The notes beneath the pieces were generated by a model, which was not told where the DNA came from, did no database searches, and saw only the letters and a list, made by a program, of their open reading frames with translations. Below are positions 5,316 to 49,574 of a stretch of DNA of 64,000 nt, one piece after another. A program made the position numbers and the translations under genes. Numbering within the stretch: the stretch's first letter is position 1; every line of letters begins with the position of its first letter. This stretch comes from Escherichia coli (GTDB lineage Bacteria; Pseudomonadota; Gammaproteobacteria; Enterobacterales; Enterobacteriaceae): NCBI RefSeq assembly GCF_036507355.1, contig NZ_AP027877.1; one strand, given 5' to 3'.

Positions 5316-6473
5316 TTGAAACGTAGTCTGCTTTTTTCTGCCGTGCTGTGTGCGGCGTCATTGACCTCCGTCCATGCGGCGCAGCCGATCACTGAACCGG
5401 AGTTTGCCTCTGATATTGTCGATCGTTATGCCGATCATATTTTTTACGGCAGCGGTGCCACGGGGATGGCGCTGGTTGTTATCGACGGTAACCAGCGCGT
5501 CTTTCGCAGTTATGGCGAAACGCGACCTGGTAATAACGTTCGCCCGCAGCTGGATTCGGTCGTGCGTATTGCTTCCCTCACCAAGCTAATGACCAGTGAG
5601 ATGCTGGTGAAATTGCTCGACCAGGGGACCGTGAAGTTAAACGATCCGCTAAGTAAATATGCTCCGCCAGGCGCACGCGTGCCAACCTACAATGGGACGC
5701 CCATTACGCTGGTCAATCTGGCAACCCATACCAGCGCCCTGCCCCGTGAACAGCCCGGTGGCGCGGCACATCGTCCGGTGTTTGTCTGGCCAACGCGCGA
5801 GCAACGCTGGAAATACCTTTCTACGGCGAAGCTGAAAGCCGCGCCAGGCAGTCAGGCGGCGTACTCTAACCTTGCGTTCGACCTGCTGGCAGATGCACTG
5901 GCGAATGCGTCCGGCAAGCCTTATACCCAGTTGTTTGAAGAGCAGATTACCCGTCCATTGGGGATGAAAGACACCACCTACACCCCCTCACCGGATCAGT
6001 GCCGCCGTTTAATGGTTGCTGAGCGCGGTGCCAGTCCGTGCAATAACACGCTGGCGGCAATTGGCAGCGGCGGCGTCTATTCCACGCCTGGCGATATGAT
6101 GCGCTGGATGCAGCAGTATTTGTCATCTGATTTTTATCAGCGCAGTAACCAGGCAGATCGCATGCAGACGTTGATTTATCAGCGCGCGCAGTTTACGAAA
6201 GTGATTGGCATGGATGTCCCCGGCAAAGCGGATGCGCTTGGTTTAGGCTGGGTATATATGGCCCCGAAAGAGGGTCGTCCGGGGATTATTCAGAAGACAG
6301 GTGGTGGTGGCGGTTTCATTACCTATATGGCGATGATCCCGCAGAAGAATATTGGCGCGTTTGTGGTGGTCACTCGTTCGCCGTTGACGCGCTTTAAAAA
6401 TATGAGCGATGGCATCAATGATCTGGTGACCGAGCTAAGCGGGAATAAACCGTTGGTTATCCCCGCGTCCTGA
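5316..6473 (+). CDS. ampH: Penicillin-binding protein AmpH (class C beta-lactamase-like DD-peptidase)
   Basis: 385-aa ORF with TTG start, signal peptide MKRSLLFSAVLCAASLTSVHA and serine-hydrolase motif ASLTK. Confidence 0.9.
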   Translation: MKRSLLFSAVLCAASLTSVHAAQPITEPEFASDIVDRYADHIFYGSGATGMALVVIDGNQRVFRSYGETRPGNNVRPQLDSVVRIASLTKLMTSEMLVKLLDQGTVKLNDPLSKYAPPGARVPTYNGTPITLVNLATHTSALPREQPGGAAHRPVFVWPTREQRWKYLSTAKLKAAPGSQAAYSNLAFDLLADALANASGKPYTQLFEEQITRPLGMKDTTYTPSPDQCRRLMVAERGASPCNNTLAAIGSGGVYSTPGDMMRWMQQYLSSDFYQRSNQADRMQTLIYQRAQFTKVIGMDVPGKADALGLGWVYMAPKEGRPGIIQKTGGGGGFITYMAMIPQKNIGAFVVVTRSPLTRFKNMSDGINDLVTELSGNKPLVIPAS

Positions 6474-7821: not shown

Positions 7822-7939
<118 letters not shown>

Positions 7940-13756: not shown

Positions 13757-14719
13757 TTATTGCACGAAGCGCGAGGTAACGTACTGGCTGTAATCATTCG
13801 CTACAGCCGGGACCTTGCCCTGCTCTTTCAAAAACTGCGCGGTGTCGATGATCGCTTTGTTCACCGGTCCGGTCAGTTCTGCCGTTTGTTGCTGCGGCGT
13901 CAGATAGGTATTCCCCTTCACCAGCCCCGGAACGTCACCTTCAGGCACGCCGCTTAAACGCGCCAGTTTGCTGATGTTTTCCGGCTGTTTCAGCCACACG
14001 TCTGGGTTAGCAATGTACGGTTGCTGAGCATCGATGGCGCTTTTAGCGAACGCTTTCACGACCTCAGGATGTTTCTCGGCAAAATCTTTGCGCACCACCC
14101 AGACGTCCAGCGTTGGCGCGCCCCACTGTCCGACCTGTTCAGAATCGGTCAACACCTTGCCGTCTTTTTCCAGGGCGTTAACCGCCGGTGCCCAGACATA
14201 AGCACCATCAATATCTCCCCGCTGCCAGGCAGCGATAATCGCGGGCGGCTGCAGGTTCACAATCTCCACTTGCCCGGGTTTAATGCCCCAGTGTTTCAGC
14301 GCCGCCAGCAGGCTGTAGTGGGTGGTGGAGATAAATGGTACGGCGATGCGTTTGCCAATCAGATCTTCCGGTTTGCTGATAGTTTTCTTTACCACCAGCG
14401 CTTCGGAGTTACCCAGTTTTGACGCCAGCAAGAAGACTTCAATCGGCACCTGTTGGCTGGCTGCAACCGCTAACGGGCTGGAACCGAGGTTGCCGATTTG
14501 CACGTCGCCTGAAGCCAGCGCCCGCACGATGCTGGCTCCGCTGTCAAACTTACGCCAGTCCACGGTTGCTCCGCTTTCTTTAGCAAAGGTGTTGTCGGCC
14601 TGAGCCACTTTCGCCGGTTCGGCTGAGGTTTGATACGCCACGGTGACGTTCACCGCCTGCGCCTGAAAAGCGATGAATGCCAGTGCGGCAAGAAGAGTAT
14701 TACGCGATGAAATTGCCAT
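13757..14719 (-). CDS. tauA: Taurine ABC transporter periplasmic binding protein
   Basis: 320-aa ORF with signal peptide MAISSRNTLLAALAFIAFQAQA. Confidence 0.95.
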   Translation of the reverse strand: MAISSRNTLLAALAFIAFQAQAVNVTVAYQTSAEPAKVAQADNTFAKESGATVDWRKFDSGASIVRALASGDVQIGNLGSSPLAVAASQQVPIEVFLLASKLGNSEALVVKKTISKPEDLIGKRIAVPFISTTHYSLLAALKHWGIKPGQVEIVNLQPPAIIAAWQRGDIDGAYVWAPAVNALEKDGKVLTDSEQVGQWGAPTLDVWVVRKDFAEKHPEVVKAFAKSAIDAQQPYIANPDVWLKQPENISKLARLSGVPEGDVPGLVKGNTYLTPQQQTAELTGPVNKAIIDTAQFLKEQGKVPAVANDYSQYVTSRFVQ

Positions 14720-15021
14720 GATTGTCTGCTCCCCTGTCTTGTTATGGGAGCAGTATTTCGTTGCGGGTCAGTTTGATAAAGGAATTAAAAGGTCTTGTTA
14801 AGAACAAAGCGTTTTTAGAAAAAAATCGGCAATGGTTAGCGAGTTTGCGCATTTTGCGGTTTTGGCGAACGTATCCCGCCGGTTCACAAGCCAGATAATA
14901 TGTGCGCGCTCCGGCAAATTATTGCCATTTTGTTACATCCATTCCATATCTGTCGCTGGTTGATTGCCAGCGCCGCGCCGTGATGCATGATAGGAGAATT
15001 AGATAATAAGAGAAGAAAAGT

Positions 15022-15651
15022 ATGATTCGGGTAGTGCTGGTGGATGACCATGTGGTGGTGCGCTCTGGCTTCGCACAATTACTCTCTCTGGAAGACGATC
15101 TGGAGGTCATTGGTCAGTACAGTAGTGCCGCGCAGGCATGGTCGGCATTAATCCGTGATGACGTCAATGTTGCCGTCATTGATATTGCCATGCCGGACGA
15201 AAACGGCCTCAGTTTGCTTAAGCGCCTGCGTGCACAAAAACCGCAATTTCGCGCCATTATTCTTAGCATTTATGACGCGCCAACCTTTGTGCAAAGCGCG
15301 CTGGATGCCGGTGCCAGCGGGTATTTAACCAAACGCTGTGGGCCGGAAGAGTTAGTGCAGGCGGTGCGCTCGGTCGGGCTGGGCGGGCATTATCTCTGTG
15401 CCGATGCGATTCGGGCTTTACGCGGCGGCGGGCAATCCGCCCAGGCGCTGGAAATTCTCACCCCGCGAGAACGTGAAGTGTTTGATTTACTTGTCAAAGG
15501 AGACAGCGTTAAAGAGATCGCCTTTAAACTCGAACTCAGTCATAAAACGGTACATGTGCATCGCGCCAATGTGCTGGGAAAACTGAACTGCCATAGCACC
15601 ATTGAACTGGTACATTTTGCGCTCGACCACCATCTGCTGGCGGGGCATTAA
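15022..15651 (+). CDS. NarL/FixJ-family response regulator, UhpA paralogue
   Basis: 209-aa ORF MIRVVLVDDHVVVRSGFAQLL... (receiver domain) with a C-terminal LuxR-type HTH (...VKEIAFKLELSHKTVHVHRANVLGKL...); similar to UhpA as recalled but distinct. Confidence 0.85.
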   Translation: MIRVVLVDDHVVVRSGFAQLLSLEDDLEVIGQYSSAAQAWSALIRDDVNVAVIDIAMPDENGLSLLKRLRAQKPQFRAIILSIYDAPTFVQSALDAGASGYLTKRCGPEELVQAVRSVGLGGHYLCADAIRALRGGGQSAQALEILTPREREVFDLLVKGDSVKEIAFKLELSHKTVHVHRANVLGKLNCHSTIELVHFALDHHLLAGH

Positions 15652-17192
15652 TGTCGCGCAATCTTCGTCATTGGGTGATTTCGCTGTTTATTGTGCTGGC
15701 CTGGGGAACCGGCTGGCTGATGCTGTGGACGCTCAGCTTTTATCTGACCAATAACGGTCAACAGGCGGTGTTGTTTCTCCCGCAGGGAGTTTATCTCGCC
15801 CTTGTTATTTTGCTCTCTCGCCGCTACTGGCCTGCGTTGGTGCTCCCCCCTTTGCTGATGATGTTCTGGCTCCATAGTGAACAGCTATTGAACGGTTATC
15901 TCATGCTGGCAACGCCGATTATTAGCCTGTTTCCTGTCCTCCTTGCGCAAAACTTCTGGCACCGTTTTCCACTTTACTGGCAGCGTCTGACGTTGCTGTT
16001 AGCCACTGTCACGGCAGCTTCATTGTTGAATACCGCCCTGCTCTCCCCTTTTATGTCAGGCCCAATAATGCTGCCGGGTTTGACCTCATTTACCGGCGGC
16101 GTATTACTGACGCCGTTTGTCTATCTTATCTTTGAGTTTCTGCGCCAGCAGCATCGCTACCAGCTCCTGGGACTCGATACGCATAATCCCCCCTTGCGTA
16201 CCTCTTTAATCATCTGGTGTAGCCTGTTTTTTATTATTGGTATCGGCACTCAGATGGTGCTGTCACCTGAAATTGAACGTCTGCTGTTGATCGTGGTCTT
16301 TTTGCCCAATGTGGTGATGGCGTGGAAATTTGGCTGGCAAGGTGGCGTACTCTCCGGGCTTTTGGGCAGCATGATGATCACCATCGCCCGCCAGATTGGC
16401 GTGGGCTTTAGTAACCTGGTGGAGCTGGAGATTTTCCTCGCGACCCAGGCCTTGCTGGGAATTGGCCTGGGCATTGCCATCAGTCGCCAGCAACATCTGG
16501 CGCTAAACCTGCACCATTACCGACAACGGCTGGAGGCCGAGCTGGCAGCGCGGCGGGCATTGGCGGAAAAGCTGATCCACACCGAGGAGGACACGCGAAA
16601 AAACCTGGCGCGAGAGCTGCACGACGAAATCGGTCAGAACATCACCGCCATTCAGATCCAGTCGCAACTGGTGAAGCGGGCGCGTGATCCGGCGCAAATT
16701 CAATCCGCAGCCAGCCAAATCAATGAGCTCGCCCGCCGCATTCATCTCTCCACCCGCCAATTGCTGCGCCAGTTGCGGCCTCCCGCGCTTGATGAACTGA
16801 CATTTCGCGAAGCGTTGTTGCATCTGATTAATGAATTTGCCTTTAGTGAACGCGGCATTCATTGCCAGTTTGCCTATCAACTGAACTCCACACCAGAAAA
16901 CGAAACGGTGCGCTTTACCTTGTATCGGTTATTACAGGAGTTGCTCAATAACGTCTGTAAACACGCCGAAGCCAGCGAAGTGACGATTATCCTGCGCCAG
17001 CAGGGAGAGGTATTGCATCTGGAAGTCAGCGACAACGGTGTGGGGATCGCCAGCGGGAAAATGGCCGGATTTGGCATTCAGGGGATGCGTGAGCGCGTCA
17101 GCGCCCTGGGCGGCGACTTAACGCTCGAAAAACAGCACGGCACGCGGGTAATTGTTAACTTGCCCACATTTTTGCAACAAATCGCCGGATAA
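15651..17192 (+). CDS. Sensor histidine kinase, UhpB paralogue (polytopic N-terminal domain, HisKA_3, HATPase)
   Basis: 513-aa ORF; about 8 hydrophobic segments in the N-terminal half, H-box ELHDEIGQ, G-box DNGVGI; start overlaps the regulator stop (TAATG). Confidence 0.85.
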   Translation: MSRNLRHWVISLFIVLAWGTGWLMLWTLSFYLTNNGQQAVLFLPQGVYLALVILLSRRYWPALVLPPLLMMFWLHSEQLLNGYLMLATPIISLFPVLLAQNFWHRFPLYWQRLTLLLATVTAASLLNTALLSPFMSGPIMLPGLTSFTGGVLLTPFVYLIFEFLRQQHRYQLLGLDTHNPPLRTSLIIWCSLFFIIGIGTQMVLSPEIERLLLIVVFLPNVVMAWKFGWQGGVLSGLLGSMMITIARQIGVGFSNLVELEIFLATQALLGIGLGIAISRQQHLALNLHHYRQRLEAELAARRALAEKLIHTEEDTRKNLARELHDEIGQNITAIQIQSQLVKRARDPAQIQSAASQINELARRIHLSTRQLLRQLRPPALDELTFREALLHLINEFAFSERGIHCQFAYQLNSTPENETVRFTLYRLLQELLNNVCKHAEASEVTIILRQQGEVLHLEVSDNGVGIASGKMAGFGIQGMRERVSALGGDLTLEKQHGTRVIVNLPTFLQQIAG

Positions 17193-17264
17193 CCAGGAAA
17201 AAGTCTTAGGTATCCCGGATTTTCTCTCATCCCCTTTCACTTTCATTTTCATATAGTCAGCAAC

Positions 17265-18581
17265 ATGGAGACAACCATGCACGCGCGTTCAGCGAGAGAA
17301 ATTAATCAATGCTACCGGACATTACGTCCGCGATTGCTGATGTGCATGATTATTGGCTACGCCGCATTTTATCTGACGCGAAAAAGCGTGAATTACGTCC
17401 TTCCGGCGCTACAAACCGACCTCGGACTGGATAAAGGCGACATTGGCCTGCTGGGTTCGCTGTTTTATCTCAGCTACGGATTGTCGAAATTTACCGCCGG
17501 ACTGTGGCATGACAGCCACGGACAACGCGGTTTTATGGGCGTCGGCTTGTTCGCCACCGGGTTATTGAACGTGGTGTTTGCCTTTGGCGAATCACTTACG
17601 CTTCTGCTTGTGGTCTGGACACTGAACGGTTTTTTTCAGGGCTGGGGATGGCCACCGTGTGCCCGCTTGCTGACCCACTGGTACTCACGCAATGAGCGCG
17701 GTTTCTGGTGGGGCTGCTGGAATATGTCGATCAACATTGGCGGAGCGATTATTCCGCTGATTAGCGCCTTTGCCGCCCACTGGTGGGGCTGGCAGGCCGC
17801 GATGCTGACACCGGGGATAATCAGCATGGCATTAGGGATCTGGTTAACGCTACAACTCAAAGGCACGCCCCAGGAAGAGGGATTACCGACAGTTGGTCAC
17901 TGGCGTCACGATCCGCTGGAGTTACGTCAGGAACAACAAAGTCCGCCGATGGGGCTGTGGCAAATGTTGCGCACCACCATGCTGCAAAATCCGCTGATCT
18001 GGCTACTGGGCGTCTCTTATGTACTGGTTTATGTGATCCGGATTGCGCTTAACGACTGGGGCAATATCTGGCTGACGGAAAGCCACGGTGTCAACCTGCT
18101 CAGCGCCAACGCCACGGTAATGCTGTTTGAAGTGGGCGGCTTACTCGGCGCGTTATTTGCCGGATGGGGATCGGATTTGCTGTTTAGCGGGCAACGAGCG
18201 CCAATGATTTTGCTGTTCACGTTGGGGTTGATGGTGTCAGTCGCCGCACTGTGGCTGGCACCGGTTCATCACTACGCTCTGCTGGCAGTGTGCTTTTTTA
18301 CCGTGGGCTTTTTCGTCTTTGGCCCACAAATGCTGATTGGACTTGCGGCGGTGGAGTGTGGGCACAAAGCTGCGGCGGGTTCAATCACCGGATTTCTCGG
18401 CCTGTTCGCTTACCTTGGCGCGGCGCTGGCAGGCTGGCCGCTGTCGCTGGTCATCGAACGCTACGGCTGGCCGGGAATGTTCAGTTTACTCTCGGTCGCC
18501 GCAGTACTTATGGGTTTACTGCTGATGCCGTTACTGATGGCGGGCATCACCACCACTCACGCTCGAAGGATAAAACAATGA
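17265..18581 (+). CDS. MFS protein, UhpC/UhpT-like (sugar-phosphate sensor or transporter)
   Basis: 438-aa 12-TM-like ORF adjacent to the UhpA/UhpB-like pair. Confidence 0.8.
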   Translation: METTMHARSAREINQCYRTLRPRLLMCMIIGYAAFYLTRKSVNYVLPALQTDLGLDKGDIGLLGSLFYLSYGLSKFTAGLWHDSHGQRGFMGVGLFATGLLNVVFAFGESLTLLLVVWTLNGFFQGWGWPPCARLLTHWYSRNERGFWWGCWNMSINIGGAIIPLISAFAAHWWGWQAAMLTPGIISMALGIWLTLQLKGTPQEEGLPTVGHWRHDPLELRQEQQSPPMGLWQMLRTTMLQNPLIWLLGVSYVLVYVIRIALNDWGNIWLTESHGVNLLSANATVMLFEVGGLLGALFAGWGSDLLFSGQRAPMILLFTLGLMVSVAALWLAPVHHYALLAVCFFTVGFFVFGPQMLIGLAAVECGHKAAAGSITGFLGLFAYLGAALAGWPLSLVIERYGWPGMFSLLSVAAVLMGLLLMPLLMAGITTTHARRIKQ

Positions 18582-19609
18582 AAATGACCTTTACCTCTAC
18601 TCTGATTGCTTCTGCCGTTGCGCTGGCGACTTTAACGGGTGCCGCGCAGGCAAAAGGCCGGCTGGTGGTCTATTGCAGCGCCACCAATGAAATGTGTGAG
18701 GCCGAAACCAAAGCGTTTGGCGAGAAATATGATGTAAAAACCTCGTTTATCCGCAACGGTTCCGGAAGCACCCTGGCAAAAGTCGATGCTGAAAAGAAAA
18801 ACCCCCAGGCTGACGTCTGGTACGGCGGCACTTTAGACCCGCAATCGCAGGCTGGCGAGATGGGCCTGCTACAGGCGTATAAATCCCCTAACCTTGAGCA
18901 GATCATGGAGAAATTCCGCGATCCGGCAAAAGTGAAAGGGAATCTGTCCTCTGCCGTTTATGTGGGGATCCTCGGTTTTGGCGTAAACACCGATCGTCTG
19001 AAAGAGAAAAACCTGCCGGTGCCGAAGTGCTGGAAAGATCTCACCAAACCGGAATATAAAGGCGAAATTCAAATTGCCGATCCGCAAAGTTCCGGTACTG
19101 CCTACACCGCCCTGGCTACTTTTGCGCAGCTGTGGGGGGAAGATCAGGCCTTTGATTATCTAAAACAACTGAACGCCAACGTCTCTCAGTACACCAAATC
19201 AGGCATAGCCCCGGCACGTAACGCCGCCCGTGGCGAAACGGCGATTGGTATTGGCTTCCTGCATGACTACTCGCTGGAAAAAGAACAGGGCGCGCCGCTG
19301 GAGTTGATTTCCCCGTGTGAAGGTACAGGCTACGAAATTGGCGGCGTCAGCATTCTGAAAGGCGCGCGCAACCTCGACAACGCCAAACTGTTTGTGGACT
19401 GGGTATTATCAAAAGAAGCGCAGGAACTGGCATGGAAGAAAGGGAAGTCTTATCAGATCCTGACCAATACCACCGCCGAAACGTCGCCAAACTCACTGAA
19501 GCTCGACGACCTGAAATTAATCAACTACGACATGGACAAATACGGTTCCACGGATGTTCGTAAGGCATTGATTAATAAATGGGTTAGCGAAGTAAAAATG
19601 GGTAAATAA
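18578..19609 (+). CDS. afuA: ABC transporter periplasmic binding protein, AfuA/FbpA-like
   Basis: 343 aa from MKMTFTSTLIASAVALATLTGAAQA (signal peptide); the track ORF 18251..19609 is an upstream alternate-start extension. Confidence 0.85.
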   Translation: MKMTFTSTLIASAVALATLTGAAQAKGRLVVYCSATNEMCEAETKAFGEKYDVKTSFIRNGSGSTLAKVDAEKKNPQADVWYGGTLDPQSQAGEMGLLQAYKSPNLEQIMEKFRDPAKVKGNLSSAVYVGILGFGVNTDRLKEKNLPVPKCWKDLTKPEYKGEIQIADPQSSGTAYTALATFAQLWGEDQAFDYLKQLNANVSQYTKSGIAPARNAARGETAIGIGFLHDYSLEKEQGAPLELISPCEGTGYEIGGVSILKGARNLDNAKLFVDWVLSKEAQELAWKKGKSYQILTNTTAETSPNSLKLDDLKLINYDMDKYGSTDVRKALINKWVSEVKMGK

Positions 19610-19677
19610 ACCCGCATTAGGCGCATTTGCCGGGTGCAGCGCAGACGCCTGCCCCGGCCAACCATACCGGAACTGCT

Positions 19678-21756
19678 ATGTCACAGACACTTGCACTCCA
19701 TCCCGTGAAAAAGCGGGATGCGATTTTCCTTTGGGTTTTGCTGGGCTGGCTGGCATTTATACTGTTGCCGAGCTGGAGCCTCGATTATGGCCTGCTGGAG
19801 TCCACGAGTGATGAGATCCTCGAGGCTTATGGCTGGTCGCATTTTAATATCAGCTGGCTGTGGTATTTGTTACCGAGTCTGTTGCTGGTTCGCCCGTTTC
19901 GTGAGGCCACACGCGAACAGCGTAGTCGTCATTATTTTGATGCCGGCTGGGCATTGCTCTGTATGGCGTTTATCGTCATCAGCGCCACCGTGGTTGGACG
20001 CGGTTTAGGCTACGCCGCCATCGTGCTGTTTGTCGAACTAGGCGCGATTATGACGCTGGCCTTAACCCGCCTCGAATGGCTGGGTGGCGACCGCTTCGTG
20101 ATCGGCTCACTGATTGCGATTGTGGCGCTGATTGGCATTTTTATCGTCTGGCCGAGCATCGCCATTTTTATCCCGATGTTCACCAACGACGCGGGAGAGT
20201 TCGCCCCGCTGGCGTTTATGACCGTGCTCTCGCAGGCACATATTGTTCAGGTGATCGTCAACTCTATCGTCTTGTCGATAGCGGTGGGGATAGGCTGTAC
20301 TTTCTTCGGCCTGGTGCTGGCGATTTATACCACGCGCATCGCTAAACGCAGCGCCATTATTGGTCGCATCTTTTCCATTTTGCCCATCGTTACGCCACCG
20401 TTTGTGGTCGGCTTAGGCGTGACGCTCATGATGGGGCGCTCCGGCTATGTTACGGAATTTATGGTGGAGTGGTTTGGGCTGACCAACACCAACTGGCTGT
20501 ACGGTTTTACCGGGATCTGGCTGGCACAGGTTCTGGCATTCACGCCAATGGCATTTATGATCCTCGACGGGGCCATTAAAACCATTCATCCCTCGCTGGA
20601 AGAGGCCTCCTACACCCTGCGCGCCAGCCGCTGGCAAACCTTTAACGGCGTGTTTGTGCCGTTGTTGAAGCCCGCACTCGCCAATGCCTTTTTAATCGTC
20701 GTGGTACAGTCACTGGCTGATTTCAGTAACCCGCTGGTACTTGGCGGTAACTTCGACGTACTGGCGACGCAAATTTACTTCTATATTACCGGCTCGCAGC
20801 TGGATTATCAGGCCGCCAGCACCCTTGGCGCTTTCCTGCTGCTGTTCTCGCTGCTGGTGTTCTGCATCCAGTATATGTGGATTGGTAAACGCTCTTACGT
20901 CACGGTTTCCGGCAAATCCTACCGTGGCGACGTCCAGCCGCTACCGGTCACCCTGGTGTGGAGCGTGGTCGCCATACTTGCGATATGGATTGCCTTTAAC
21001 GCCCTGCTCTACGGCAGCATTTTCTACGGCAGCTTCACGGTGAACTGGGGCGTGGACTACACCCTGACGCTGGATAACTTTATCAAGCTATTTGGTCAGG
21101 GAATGAGCGACGGCGCCTGGCCTTCACTGCTGGATACCCTGCTCTACGCCGGGATTGCCGCTCCCATTACCGCTATCTTTGGCCTGCTCATCGCCTGGGT
21201 GGTGGTGCGTCAACAATTCAAAGGCAAAAAGACCATCGAGTTCACCACCATGCTGTGCTTTGCCGTACCGGGTACGGTGGCGGGCGTTTCGTATATTCTT
21301 GCCTTTAACAGCGCTCCGGTTTATCTCACCGGAACGGCGGCAATTGTGATTATCTCGATGGTGATGCGTAACGTTCCGGTGGGTATTCGCGCCGGGATTG
21401 CGGGTCTGGGGCAGATCGACAAATCGCTGGATGAAGCCTCACTCAGCCTGCGCGCGGGTTCACTGCGAACCATTACGCACATTTTACTGCCGCTGCTGCG
21501 CCCGGCCATTCTCTCGGCCCTGATCTACAGCTTTGTGCGGGCCATCACGACGGTCAGCGCCATCGTCTTTCTCGTCACGCCGGACACCCGCGTGGCAACC
21601 GCCTACATTCTTAACCGCGTTGAAGACGGCGAATATGGCGTAGCCATCGCCTATGGTTCGATTCTGATCGTGGTGATGCTGGCGATTATTTTCCTCTTTG
21701 ACTGGCTGATCGGAGAAGCTCGTATCTCCCGTTCTAAAGCCAAAAACCAGGCGTAA
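19678..21756 (+). CDS. afuB: ABC transporter permease, AfuB/FbpB-like (duplicated transmembrane domain)
   Basis: About 692 aa from [24 protein letters not shown]...; large polytopic permease. Confidence 0.85.
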
Positions 21757-22814
21757 TGGAGCGCACTATGAGTCAGAAAAATTTTGTTGAACTGCGCAAC
21801 GTCACTAAACGATTCGGCAGTAATACGGTTATCGACAATATCAATCTCACCATTCCACAAGGGCAAATGGTGACGCTGCTCGGTCCTTCCGGCTGTGGCA
21901 AAACCACCATTTTGCGTCTGGTTGCCGGGCTGGAAAAACCGAGCGAAGGGCAAATTTTTATTGATGGCGAAGATGTCACGCATCGTTCCATTCAACAGCG
22001 CGATATCTGCATGGTGTTTCAGTCATACGCTCTGTTCCCGCATATGTCGCTGGGTGAAAACGTTGGCTACGGGCTGAAGATGCTTGGCGTGTCGCGTAGC
22101 GAAGTGAAACAGCGGGTGAAGGAGGCGCTGGCAATGGTGGATCTGGAAGGCTTCGAGGACCGCTATGTCGATCAGATTTCCGGTGGTCAGCAACAGCGTG
22201 TGGCACTGGCCCGCGCGTTGATCCTCAAGCCAAAGGTGCTGCTGTTTGATGAGCCGTTAAGTAACCTCGATGCCAACCTGCGCCGCAGTATGCGCGATAA
22301 GATCCGCGAGCTGCAAAAGCAGTTTAATATCACGTCGCTCTACGTCACTCACGATCAAAGTGAAGCTTTCGCGGTGTCCGACACTGTGCTGGTGATGAAT
22401 AAAGGTCACATCATGCAGATTGGCTCACCGCAGGATCTCTATCGTCAGCCAGCCTCCCGATTTATGGCAAGTTTTATGGGCGACGCCAACCTGTTCCCGG
22501 CGAACTTTAGCGAAGAGTATGTCGATATCTACGGTTATCGCCTGCCGCGCGCGGCGCATTTCCCGGCGCAAGGTAGCGGCACCGTCGGCGTTCGCCCGGA
22601 AGCCATCACCTTAAGCAATCACGGCGAAGAGAGTCAGCGTTGTGTTATTCGCCATGTCGCCTACATGGGGCCGCAGTACGAAGTGACCGTAGAGTGGCAT
22701 GGACAGGAGATTTTATTACAAGTAAACGCCACCCGTTTACAGCCCGATATTGGTGAGCACTATTACCTCGAAATCCATCCTTACGGGATGTTTGTTTTAG
22801 CGGATGCGGCATAA
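21756..22814 (+). CDS. afuC: ABC transporter ATP-binding protein, AfuC/FbpC-like
   Basis: 352-aa ORF with Walker [10 protein letters not shown], signature [14 protein letters not shown] and Walker B LLFDEP; the true start may be MSQKNF at 21768. Confidence 0.9.
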
Positions 22815-22896
22815 AAATAGCACATAAACGGTCCCCATCTGTCTTGAGGGACCGTTCACCTGGTTAGGCTTCGGACAACAATTATTCTCCAGTGTT

Positions 22897-22949
22897 ATAT
22901 ACTATAGGGGGGTATGCATTGACATATAGCATACCCCCCTATAGTATAT
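22897..22949 (+). promoter_or_regulatory. frmRAB promoter/operator: perfect 21-bp inverted repeat with G6/C6 tracts
   Basis: atatactataggggggtatgc (22897-22917) and its exact reverse complement (22929-22949) flank an 11-bp spacer attgacatata containing TTGACA; TATAGT/TAGTAT -10-like hexamers in the right arm; 25 bp upstream of the frmR ATG. Confidence 0.7.
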
Positions 22950-22973
22950 TGCGTGCAGATGATGAGGTGCGAA

Positions 22974-23249
22974 ATGCCCAGTACTCCGGAAGAGAAGAAA
23001 AAGGTCCTTACTCGAGTTCGTCGTATTCGGGGGCAGATTGATGCTCTGGAACGGTCGCTGGAGGGTGATGCCGAATGCCGTGCCGTACTCCAACAGATCG
23101 CTGCCGTTCGGGGCGCGGCTAATGGGCTGATGGCAGAAGTGCTTGAAAGCCATATCCGGGAAACGTTTGACCGAAATGACTGCTACAGCCGCGAAGTCAG
23201 CCAATCCGTTGACGACACTATTGAACTGGTTCGTGCCTATCTTAAATAG
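22974..23249 (+). CDS. frmR: Formaldehyde-responsive repressor FrmR (CsoR/RcnR family)
   Basis: 91 aa from [48 protein letters not shown]... Confidence 0.9.
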
Positions 23250-37898: not shown

Positions 37899-37934
37899 TT
37901 TACACTTTATGCGTCCGACTCGTATGTTGTGTGA
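37899..37934 (+). promoter_or_regulatory. lac promoter P1 (-35 TTTACA, -10 TATGTT, 18-bp spacer)
   Basis: tttacactttatgcgtccgactcgTATGTTgtgtga; transcript start at the A of aattgtgagcgg (37935). Confidence 0.9.
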
Positions 37935-41047
<3,113 letters not shown>

Positions 41048-43129: not shown

Positions 43130-44284
43130 TCATGCCTCTTTGACCCACAGCTGCGGAAAACGTGCTGGTGCAAAACGCAGGGTTATAATCATCAGCCCAA
43201 CGACGCACAGCGCATGAAACGCCCAGTCCATCAGGTAATTGCCGCTGATACTACGCAGCACGCCAGAAAACCACGGGGCAAGCCCGGCGATGATAAAACC
43301 GATCCCCTGCATAAACGCCACCAGCTTGCCAGCAATAGCCGGTTGCACAGAGTGATCGAGAGCCAGCAGCAAACAGAGCGGAAATGCGCCGCCCAGACCT
43401 AAACCACACACCATCGCCCACAATACCGGCAATTGCAGCGGCAGCCAGATAAAGCCGCAGAAACCCACCAGTTGTAACGCCAGTGCCAACAGCAAAAGTT
43501 TGCGCCGATCCTGATGGCGAGCCATAGCAGGCATCAGCAAAGCTCCTGCGGCTTGCCCAAGCGTCATCAATGCCAGCAAGGAACCGCTGTACTGCGCGCT
43601 GGCACCAATCTCAATATAGAAAGCGGGTAACCAGGCAATCAGGCTGGCGTAACCACCGTTAATCAGACCGAAGTAAACACCCAGCGTCCACGCGCGAGGA
43701 GTGAAAACCACGCGAACCGGAGTGGTTGTTGTCTTGTGGGAAGAGGCGACCTCGCGGGTGCTTTGCCACCACCAGGCAAAGAGCGCAACAACGGCAGGCA
43801 GCGCCCACCAGGCGAGTGTTTGATACCAGGTTTCGCTATGTTGAACTAACCAGGGTGTCAGGGCGGCACCAAGCCCACCGCCGCCCATCAGAGCCGCGGA
43901 CCACAGCCCCATCACCAGTGGCGTGCGCTGCTGAAACCGCCGTTTAATCACCGAAGGCATCACCGCCTGAATGATGCCGATCCCCACCCCACCGAGCAGT
44001 GCGCTGCTAAGCAGCAGCGCACTTTGGGGGTAAAGCTCACGCATCAATGCACCGACGGCAATCAGTAACAAACTGATGGCGACGCTGCGACGTTCGCTGA
44101 CATGCTGATGAAGCCAGCTTCCGGCCAGCGCCAGCCCGCCCATGGTAACCACCGGCAGAGCGGTCAACAGGGCAGCCACGCTAAAGCTCATTCCGCTTGC
44201 CTGGCGCAATTGCGGTAGCAGTGGCCCGACGGAGGTGAGCAGTGGTCGCATATTAAGACCAATCAGCACCAGAACCAGCAGCAT
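43130..44284 (-). CDS. cynX: Cyanate transporter (MFS)
   Basis: About 384 aa from MLLVLVLIGLNMRPLLTSVGPLLPQLRQASG...; the track ORF extends to 44311. Confidence 0.9.
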   Translation of the reverse strand: MLLVLVLIGLNMRPLLTSVGPLLPQLRQASGMSFSVAALLTALPVVTMGGLALAGSWLHQHVSERRSVAISLLLIAVGALMRELYPQSALLLSSALLGGVGIGIIQAVMPSVIKRRFQQRTPLVMGLWSAALMGGGGLGAALTPWLVQHSETWYQTLAWWALPAVVALFAWWWQSTREVASSHKTTTTPVRVVFTPRAWTLGVYFGLINGGYASLIAWLPAFYIEIGASAQYSGSLLALMTLGQAAGALLMPAMARHQDRRKLLLLALALQLVGFCGFIWLPLQLPVLWAMVCGLGLGGAFPLCLLLALDHSVQPAIAGKLVAFMQGIGFIIAGLAPWFSGVLRSISGNYLMDWAFHALCVVGLMIITLRFAPARFPQLWVKEA

Positions 44285-49299: not shown

Positions 49300-49565
49300 T
49301 GGGCAGGCATGATAAGACGCGTCAGCGTCGCATCAGGCATCTGAGCATGGTGTCGGATGCGGCGCGAGCGCCTTATCCGACCTACGGTTCAGGCCTGTAG
49401 GCATGATAAGACGCGTCAGCGTCGCATCTGGTATCAGCGCAGGGTGTCGGATGCGACGCGAGCGCCTTATCCGACCTACGGTTCAGGCCTGTAGGCATGA
49501 TAAGACGCGCCAGCGTCGCATCAGGCATCTGCGCACAACTGTCGGATGCGCCACGCGACGCATCC
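49300..49565. repeat. Tandem BIME array (about three REP-pair units, roughly 94-bp period)
   Basis: catgataagacgcg(t/c)cagcgtcgcatc...gtcggatgcg...gcgccttatccgacctacggttcaggcctgtagg repeated head-to-tail between codB and prpE. Confidence 0.85.
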
Positions 49566-49574
49566 GACAATACC

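Follow-up and report, generated by a model that had tools for sequence, protein, structure and literature searches.

A hairpin lies directly downstream of afuC in the DNA analysed here, a 64,000-nt stretch of the Escherichia coli contig NZ_AP027877.1 (hereafter the window), at the edge of the known island OI-20; stem-loops of this ordinary kind are found at operon ends. With a probability of roughly 0.55, we read it as a protective 3'-end stem-loop that has no U-run, belongs to the OI-20 transporter transcript (z0461-afuABC) and may also act as a weak terminator. A hairpin at this position is the general rule after afuC in other bacteria. The reading draws on the stability of the stem, which persists in larger folds; on its place 12 nt from the stop codon of afuC, with which a cluster of co-oriented genes ends; on the conservation of position while sequence turns over across 80 afuC loci; on compensatory changes in the stems of Serratia and of Silvania/K. 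spallanzanii/Intestinirhabdus; on the finding that 1 of 13 E. coli variable sites falls within the 18 stem positions; and on the existence of an established class of such structures (PMC6061677).

The features of the region are listed here with their coordinates in the window.

14758-22881 (no strand): island OI-20, with fusR, fusK, z0461/uhpC-like, afuA, afuB and afuC, from its junctions and gene content.
21768-22814 (+): afuC (annotated fbpC), the ABC-transporter ATPase gene that closes the OI-20 z0461-afuABC cluster, from the ORF list, the identical O157:H7 TR01 locus as annotated in RefSeq, and Pfam ABC_tran and TOBE_2 on a 99%-identical product.
22827-22835 (+): 5' arm of the hairpin, AACGGTCCC, from the sequence; invariant in 8 of 8 intact E. 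coli haplotypes.
22836-22847 (+): loop, CATCTGTCTTGA; its first four bases vary among haplotypes, its last eight are invariant, and in some genomes it is the insertion site of an IS50-like element.
22848-22856 (+): 3' arm of the hairpin, GGGACCGTT, from the sequence; the sole change is G22849A in the 2013C-4282 haplotype.
22857-22881 (+): island-specific spacer 3' of the hairpin, U-poor, with 6 of the 13 intergenic variable sites in the haplotype comparison.
22897-22949 (+): frmR promoter/operator palindrome with 21-nt perfect arms and an 11-nt centre; conserved backbone, common to K-12.
22974-23249 (+): frmR, first gene of frmRAB and next gene downstream of the hairpin, from RefSeq annotation mapped from locus L001 and Pfam Trns_repr_metal.

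The window comes from an O157:H7-type E. coli. Its OI-20 island occupies the interval between tauA and frmR, in place of the yaiS-yaiP-yaiX-yaiO genes of K-12, and afuC adjoins frmR in only 450 of 5,426 complete genomes. Homology of island-less genomes to the window begins at ~22882, which puts the right junction at ~22881/22882; the left junction is at ~14758 in most genomes. The right junction leaves the frmR promoter/operator whole, with its -35 element (TTGACA) at 22919-22924 and its -10 element (TAGTAT) at 22942-22947. The hairpin is 26 bp inside this junction, and its position at the edge of a variable island was not mentioned in the initial annotation. The 74-nt hairpin region occurs in exactly one copy per genome and is confined to the 450 island-bearing genomes. 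K-12 has yaiO next to frmR on the upstream side, with an unrelated hairpin of its own. The island was named OI-20 in work that identified AfuABC as a hexose/heptose-phosphate transporter and not an iron transporter, and FusKR was assigned its function along with AfuABC in the OI-20 literature (PMC4546632). A bovine-gut RNA-seq paper names z0461 and fusKR, and afuC and frmR are not named there; a Term-seq study of EHEC has also been published (PMC7547250).

Several observations were made on the surrounding DNA. The K-12 spacer between yaiO and frmR (L002:2985-3010) reads TTCACCGGA, compared with TTCACC-[TGGTTAGGCTTC]-GGA at 22857-22882 of the window. Over this very short stretch the comparison merely hints that backbone homology might reach as far as the foot of the 3' arm, interrupted by an indel of 12 nt; the indel is also the most variable stretch among the haplotypes. 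The window has a perfect match to the lac operator region at 37928-37962 (TGTGTGAAATTGTGAGCGGATAACAATTTCACACA) and so also spans the lac operon. REP-type palindromes are found elsewhere in the window, at 2588-2620 and 49540-49569, as are strong terminator-type hairpins at 7892-7921 and 43998-44023.

The two arms form 9 perfect pairs, 6 of them G-C, around a 12-nt loop. The afuC stop codon (TAA, 22812-22814) is separated from the stem by a 12-nt gap. The tail 3' of the stem, CACCTGGTTAGGCTTCGG, has 2 T among its first 8 bases (CACCUGGU, or 2 U in 8 in the RNA) and is thus without a U-run. From the end of the stem to the start of the frmR operator palindrome there are 40 nt, and only ~120 nt separate the hairpin from frmR itself. 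The initial annotation had described a perfect 9-bp stem with a 12-nt loop at 22827-22856, without a U-run, 13 bp from the afuC stop and 40 bp upstream of the frm operator. The sequence bears out this description, with 12 nt intervening after the stop and the stem opening at the 13th base; its gene names also agree with the RefSeq annotation, which gives fbpC (= afuC), then frmR and frmA.

The fold-energy calculation that the same annotation had called for gives -17.0 kcal/mol for the RNA of the 40-nt hairpin. Shuffled sequences give -8.0 +/- 2.3 kcal/mol (z -3.98), and 0 of 200 shuffles folded as well. RNAfold adds two inner pairs, which results in an 11-pair stem with a 7-nt loop and one bulged A; the corresponding DNA fold is -9.8 kcal/mol. 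When the context is extended to 211 nt the hairpin is kept in both the MFE and the centroid structures. The 76-nt context is, overall, unremarkable when compared with its shuffles (z -0.79).

Dinucleotide shuffles contain ~5.8 perfect 9-bp stems (3-20-nt loops) per 64 kb and the window contains four distinct stems of exactly 9 bp, so the palindrome alone is not beyond chance. These counts, together with a 76-nt context that folds like shuffles, speak for a chance or relic palindrome that has no present function and is part of a fast-evolving island-edge spacer. We consider that explanation rather unlikely. The weight comes from the position right after the operon end and not from the palindrome itself: the probability of finding such a stem within the 67 nt after the operon, as derived from the shuffle counts, is ~0.006, which argues against chance.

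Orthologous loci provide a second line of evidence on this point. The comparison covers 80 afuC orthologue loci from species-representative genomes of Enterobacterales, with protein identities of 81-99%; one orthologue locus ends 32 nt after the stop, and the counts refer to the window plus the other 79, that is, 80 loci. Over the 80 loci, the most stable simple hairpin within 60 nt of the afuC stop has a median energy of -18.0 kcal/mol, and two coding controls from the same loci have medians of -10.9 and -12.8 kcal/mol (Mann-Whitney p = 1.5e-20). Hairpins at or below -12 kcal/mol are present at 72 of the 80 loci. At least 5 T in the 8-nt tail after the stem were found at only 6 of 80, so the missing U-run is the rule at the post-afuC position and not the exception.

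The DNA that follows the stop codon is unrelated between genera, yet a strong hairpin is almost always present. Its form differs between lineages. REP-type palindromes are found 3' of afuC in Citrobacter, Klebsiella and Enterobacter; canonical terminators in Silvania, K. spallanzanii, Trabulsiella and E. mori (Enterobacter mori); and unique stems without a U-run in Serratia, Buttiauxella and Photorhabdus. The 10 pairs of the Serratia hairpin, which lacks a U-run, are 100% paired, and 2 of them have changed on both sides; the terminator of Silvania, K. spallanzanii and Intestinirhabdus has 11 pairs, likewise 100% paired, of which 3 have changed on both sides. A stable hairpin at the same place in nearly every orthologous locus, with compensatory changes in two lineages, is difficult to reconcile with a chance or relic palindrome. 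Together these alignments offer good evidence that a stem right after afuC is, in general, under selection, and by analogy only the same might hold for the E. coli stem.

Comparison of the E. coli hairpin region with the post-afuC DNA of the 79 other species gave a best blastn-short E-value of 1.9, and a top Smith-Waterman score of 28, where the maximum has a null mean of 28.6. A 10-mer, CCGTTCACCT, is common to the E. coli region and a repeated element in C. amalonaticus and related loci, and the Serratia hairpin shows some likeness to that of E. coli (AACGGTC...GACCG); neither similarity is significant and neither was taken as a sign of common origin.

The orthologue loci also contain a GC-rich non-coding repeat of ~250-350 nt that lies just 3' of afuC in several genera (C. 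amalonaticus, Silvania and a MAG). It was located at L009:5100-5444 (+) and 5503-5709 (-), L034:5188-5436 (-) and L042:5259-5441 (+), and so is present in both orientations and twice in one locus; related 5' motifs were seen in L051, L052 and L060. The repeat opens with a TTCCGTTCAC...GTGAACGG hairpin, which is followed by a GGGAGGCTCGCCGCCGCCTCCC hairpin, and a search against Rfam matched it to no family at gathering score.

A role on the other strand or at the level of the DNA was also considered; the hairpin would then be a leftward (antisense) terminator, a protein-binding palindrome, or a recombination scar or site of OI-20. When the stem is read on the minus strand, the tail that follows it, UAUGUGCUAUUUUUAUG, is richer in U and more terminator-like than that of the afuC strand, and afuC faces a convergent gene in many other genera, so that the ancestral form may have been a bidirectional terminator. 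In the window, however, the minus strand has neither a gene nor a promoter-like site that faces the hairpin, and the downstream region of no orthologue is significantly homologous. For the DNA-level variants, the distance of 26 bp to the island junction is in their favour, but the island has no integrase or transposase, the window shows no enrichment of the arm motif, and the left end of the island holds neither an arm copy nor flanking repeats (searched at 14600-15100). The hairpin was rejected as a mobile-element end or attachment site, as it has no terminal repeat partner and the island codes only for FusRK, Z0461 and AfuABC. All of these roles are, in our estimate, very improbable.

Variation within E. 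coli was assessed over the 67 intergenic positions on the island side in eight intact haplotypes, and 13 of the 67 positions are variable. The two arms of the stem (18 nt) include 1 variable site, the loop (12 nt) includes 4, all in its first four bases, and the flanks (37 nt) include 8. For the shortage of variable sites in the stem, a one-sided hypergeometric test gives p = 0.076; conservation of the stem within E. coli is thus a weak trend that is not significant. The one stem change, G22849A, belongs to the 2013C-4282 haplotype (two genomes; it matches H106/H107), introduces a C·A mismatch, which makes the fold weaker (-9.7 kcal/mol). No pair is changed on both sides among the E. coli haplotypes.

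In one lineage a 1.5-kb IS50-like element is inserted in the loop (CP057162.1, CP057688.1 and the contig-broken locus L006). It is flanked by a 9-bp target duplication, CTTGTCTTG, whose site is 22838-22846 of the window, and it codes for a 457-aa Tn5-type transposase. On the left the element ends in CTGTCTCTTATACACAAATCC, and on the right in the IS50 inside end, CTGTCTCTTGATCAGATC. It was located at L123:5096-6630 and in L124 (CP057162.1, CP057688.1), and also at the contig ends of L006, L121 and L126. The presence of the element in the loop implies that the hairpin is dispensable at least in this lineage. C22834T, the only substitution in the 5' arm, is confined to the IS-disrupted lineage according to an exact-protein look-up. 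The separated arm reads AACGGTCTC there, and the base that follows the 3' arm also has a C>T change. The stem is intact in the sister lineage, whose AfuC protein is identical. C22834T in the IS-split lineage is consistent with relaxed constraint once the hairpin had been split, and is a single case. A metagenome scan for the C22834T arm, aimed at its 3' partner, returned 28 matches, all of them unrelated and due to chance.

These data bear on the chance or relic explanation in both directions. The lack of covariation in E. coli, the non-significant trend in stem conservation, and the persistence in nature of both the C·A mismatch haplotype and the loop insertion are in its favour, whereas the single variable site of 13 in 18 stem bases, next to hypervariable first four bases of the loop, is not.

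The resemblance of the hairpin to known classes of 3' structures was then evaluated. It shares with canonical intrinsic terminators a GC-rich stem-loop soon after the stop (here at 12 nt and -17 kcal/mol), and some afuC orthologues carry a genuine terminator there. It differs from them in that a U-rich tract of ~7-8 nt directly 3' of the stem is absent on the afuC strand and in that its loop is long (12 nt, or 7 nt plus a bulge). With a tail that is not rich in U, the hairpin would be no more than a weak intrinsic terminator. A terminator consensus scan did not call the hairpin, although the 3-8-nt loop limit of the scan would also exclude a 12-nt loop. The single terminator-like consensus match in the region is at 22776-22800, inside the last afuC codons, where CATCCTTACGGGATG is followed by TTTGTTTTAG. 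It ends 12 nt 5' of the stop codon and would lie under translating ribosomes; one such match was found and 1.0 is expected in shuffles.

E. coli transcripts that depend on Rho have steady-state 3' ends just after stable stem-loops that have no U-tracts (Dar & Sorek 2018, PMC6061677), and these stem-loops block PNPase and RNase II after diffuse termination further downstream (PMC6061677). The post-afuC hairpin has two features of this class, a stable stem-loop 3' of the gene and the lack of a U-rich tail. It also resembles the class in following the last gene and in having a fold energy like those of intrinsic terminators, and differs from it in its marginal downstream C-over-G bias and in the short distance to the next promoter and gene. 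The C/G ratio is 1.12-1.33, with 11-13 YC dimers, in 78-nt windows that start at 22810-22830, and it is <1 further on; around and after the hairpin there is no clear C-over-G region that would be a Rho-utilisation (rut-like) signal.

These properties weigh on the possibility that the hairpin is a true terminator of the afu operon, either non-canonical intrinsic or assisted by Rho/NusG, which insulates frmRAB from induced afu transcription. The GC-rich stem just after the stop fits this possibility, as does the tail, which reads UUCACCUGGUU if the two terminal A-U pairs are left open, and a co-oriented, tightly repressed promoter lies 40-90 nt downstream, so read-through would matter. It is made improbable by the absent U-tract (2 U in the first 8 nt) at a site that the consensus scan does not call, by the lack of a clear rut signature, and by K-12-type strains, which run the same frm promoter behind a different upstream gene and hairpin.

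REP/BIME elements can act as stabilisers of mRNA 3' ends, as in the malE-malF REP. The hairpin is similar to these in being an extragenic palindrome after an ABC-transporter gene, and differs in being single-copy and in having no resemblance to the REP sequences at orthologous loci. Membership in the REP/BIME family was ruled out on the basis of one site per genome in 450 genomes and an arm motif that is not enriched in the window. An Rfam scan of 22600-23100 (E<=10) placed no match on the hairpin and returned only spurious microRNA-type matches, all of them on the frm palindrome. With no Rfam match and no both-side changes among E. coli haplotypes, the hairpin does not qualify as a conserved structured RNA.

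The reading that we prefer, that of a protective 3'-end stem-loop, can be described as a series of steps. Transcription would pass the afuC stop and the RNA would fold into the 11-pair stem of about -17 kcal/mol. The main effect of this stem would likely be that of a barrier to the 3'-to-5' exonucleases PNPase and RNase II. RNA ends formed further downstream, whether through Rho, the frm operator hairpin or bound FrmR, would be trimmed back to a defined and stable 3' end after afuC. In the 211-nt fold the frm palindrome forms a very stable hairpin of >21 bp. Read-through RNA would next meet this palindrome, which as DNA is bound by FrmR, and several barriers may therefore act together. In the cell the stem would set the RNA end, stabilise the message and reduce read-through into frmRAB. 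The initial annotation had proposed a stability element or a factor-dependent terminator. The proposal is reasonable and has partial support from the comparative data. It fits the class of stem-loops that lack a U-run (PMC6061677) and orthologue hairpins that mostly lack one as well, and it is weakened by the lack of a clear rut-like signal, by the non-significant trend in the E. coli stem and by the tolerated IS in the loop.

A more specific scenario, to which we would give little credence, is that the hairpin is a selected insulator made when OI-20 joined the frmRAB backbone. With the FrmR-bound operator hairpin 40 nt on, it would shield the formaldehyde-specific repression of frmRAB from sugar-phosphate-induced afu transcription, and the near-universal post-afuC hairpins of Enterobacterales, most of which lack a U-run, would then reflect a post-transcriptional need specific to the transporter mRNA and not generic operon-end architecture.

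The finding has little importance beyond annotation. Two by-products accompany it: the exact right junction of OI-20 (~22881/22882), with the whole frmR promoter intact, and natural variants, the C·A mismatch haplotype and the IS50-like loop insertion, that could be used as ready-made tests of function. Confirmation of the protective stem-loop would settle where the OI-20 afuABC transcript of EHEC-type E. coli has its 3' boundary and would add one more protective stem-loop without a U-run, one that is unusually close (40 nt) to the operator of the next operon.
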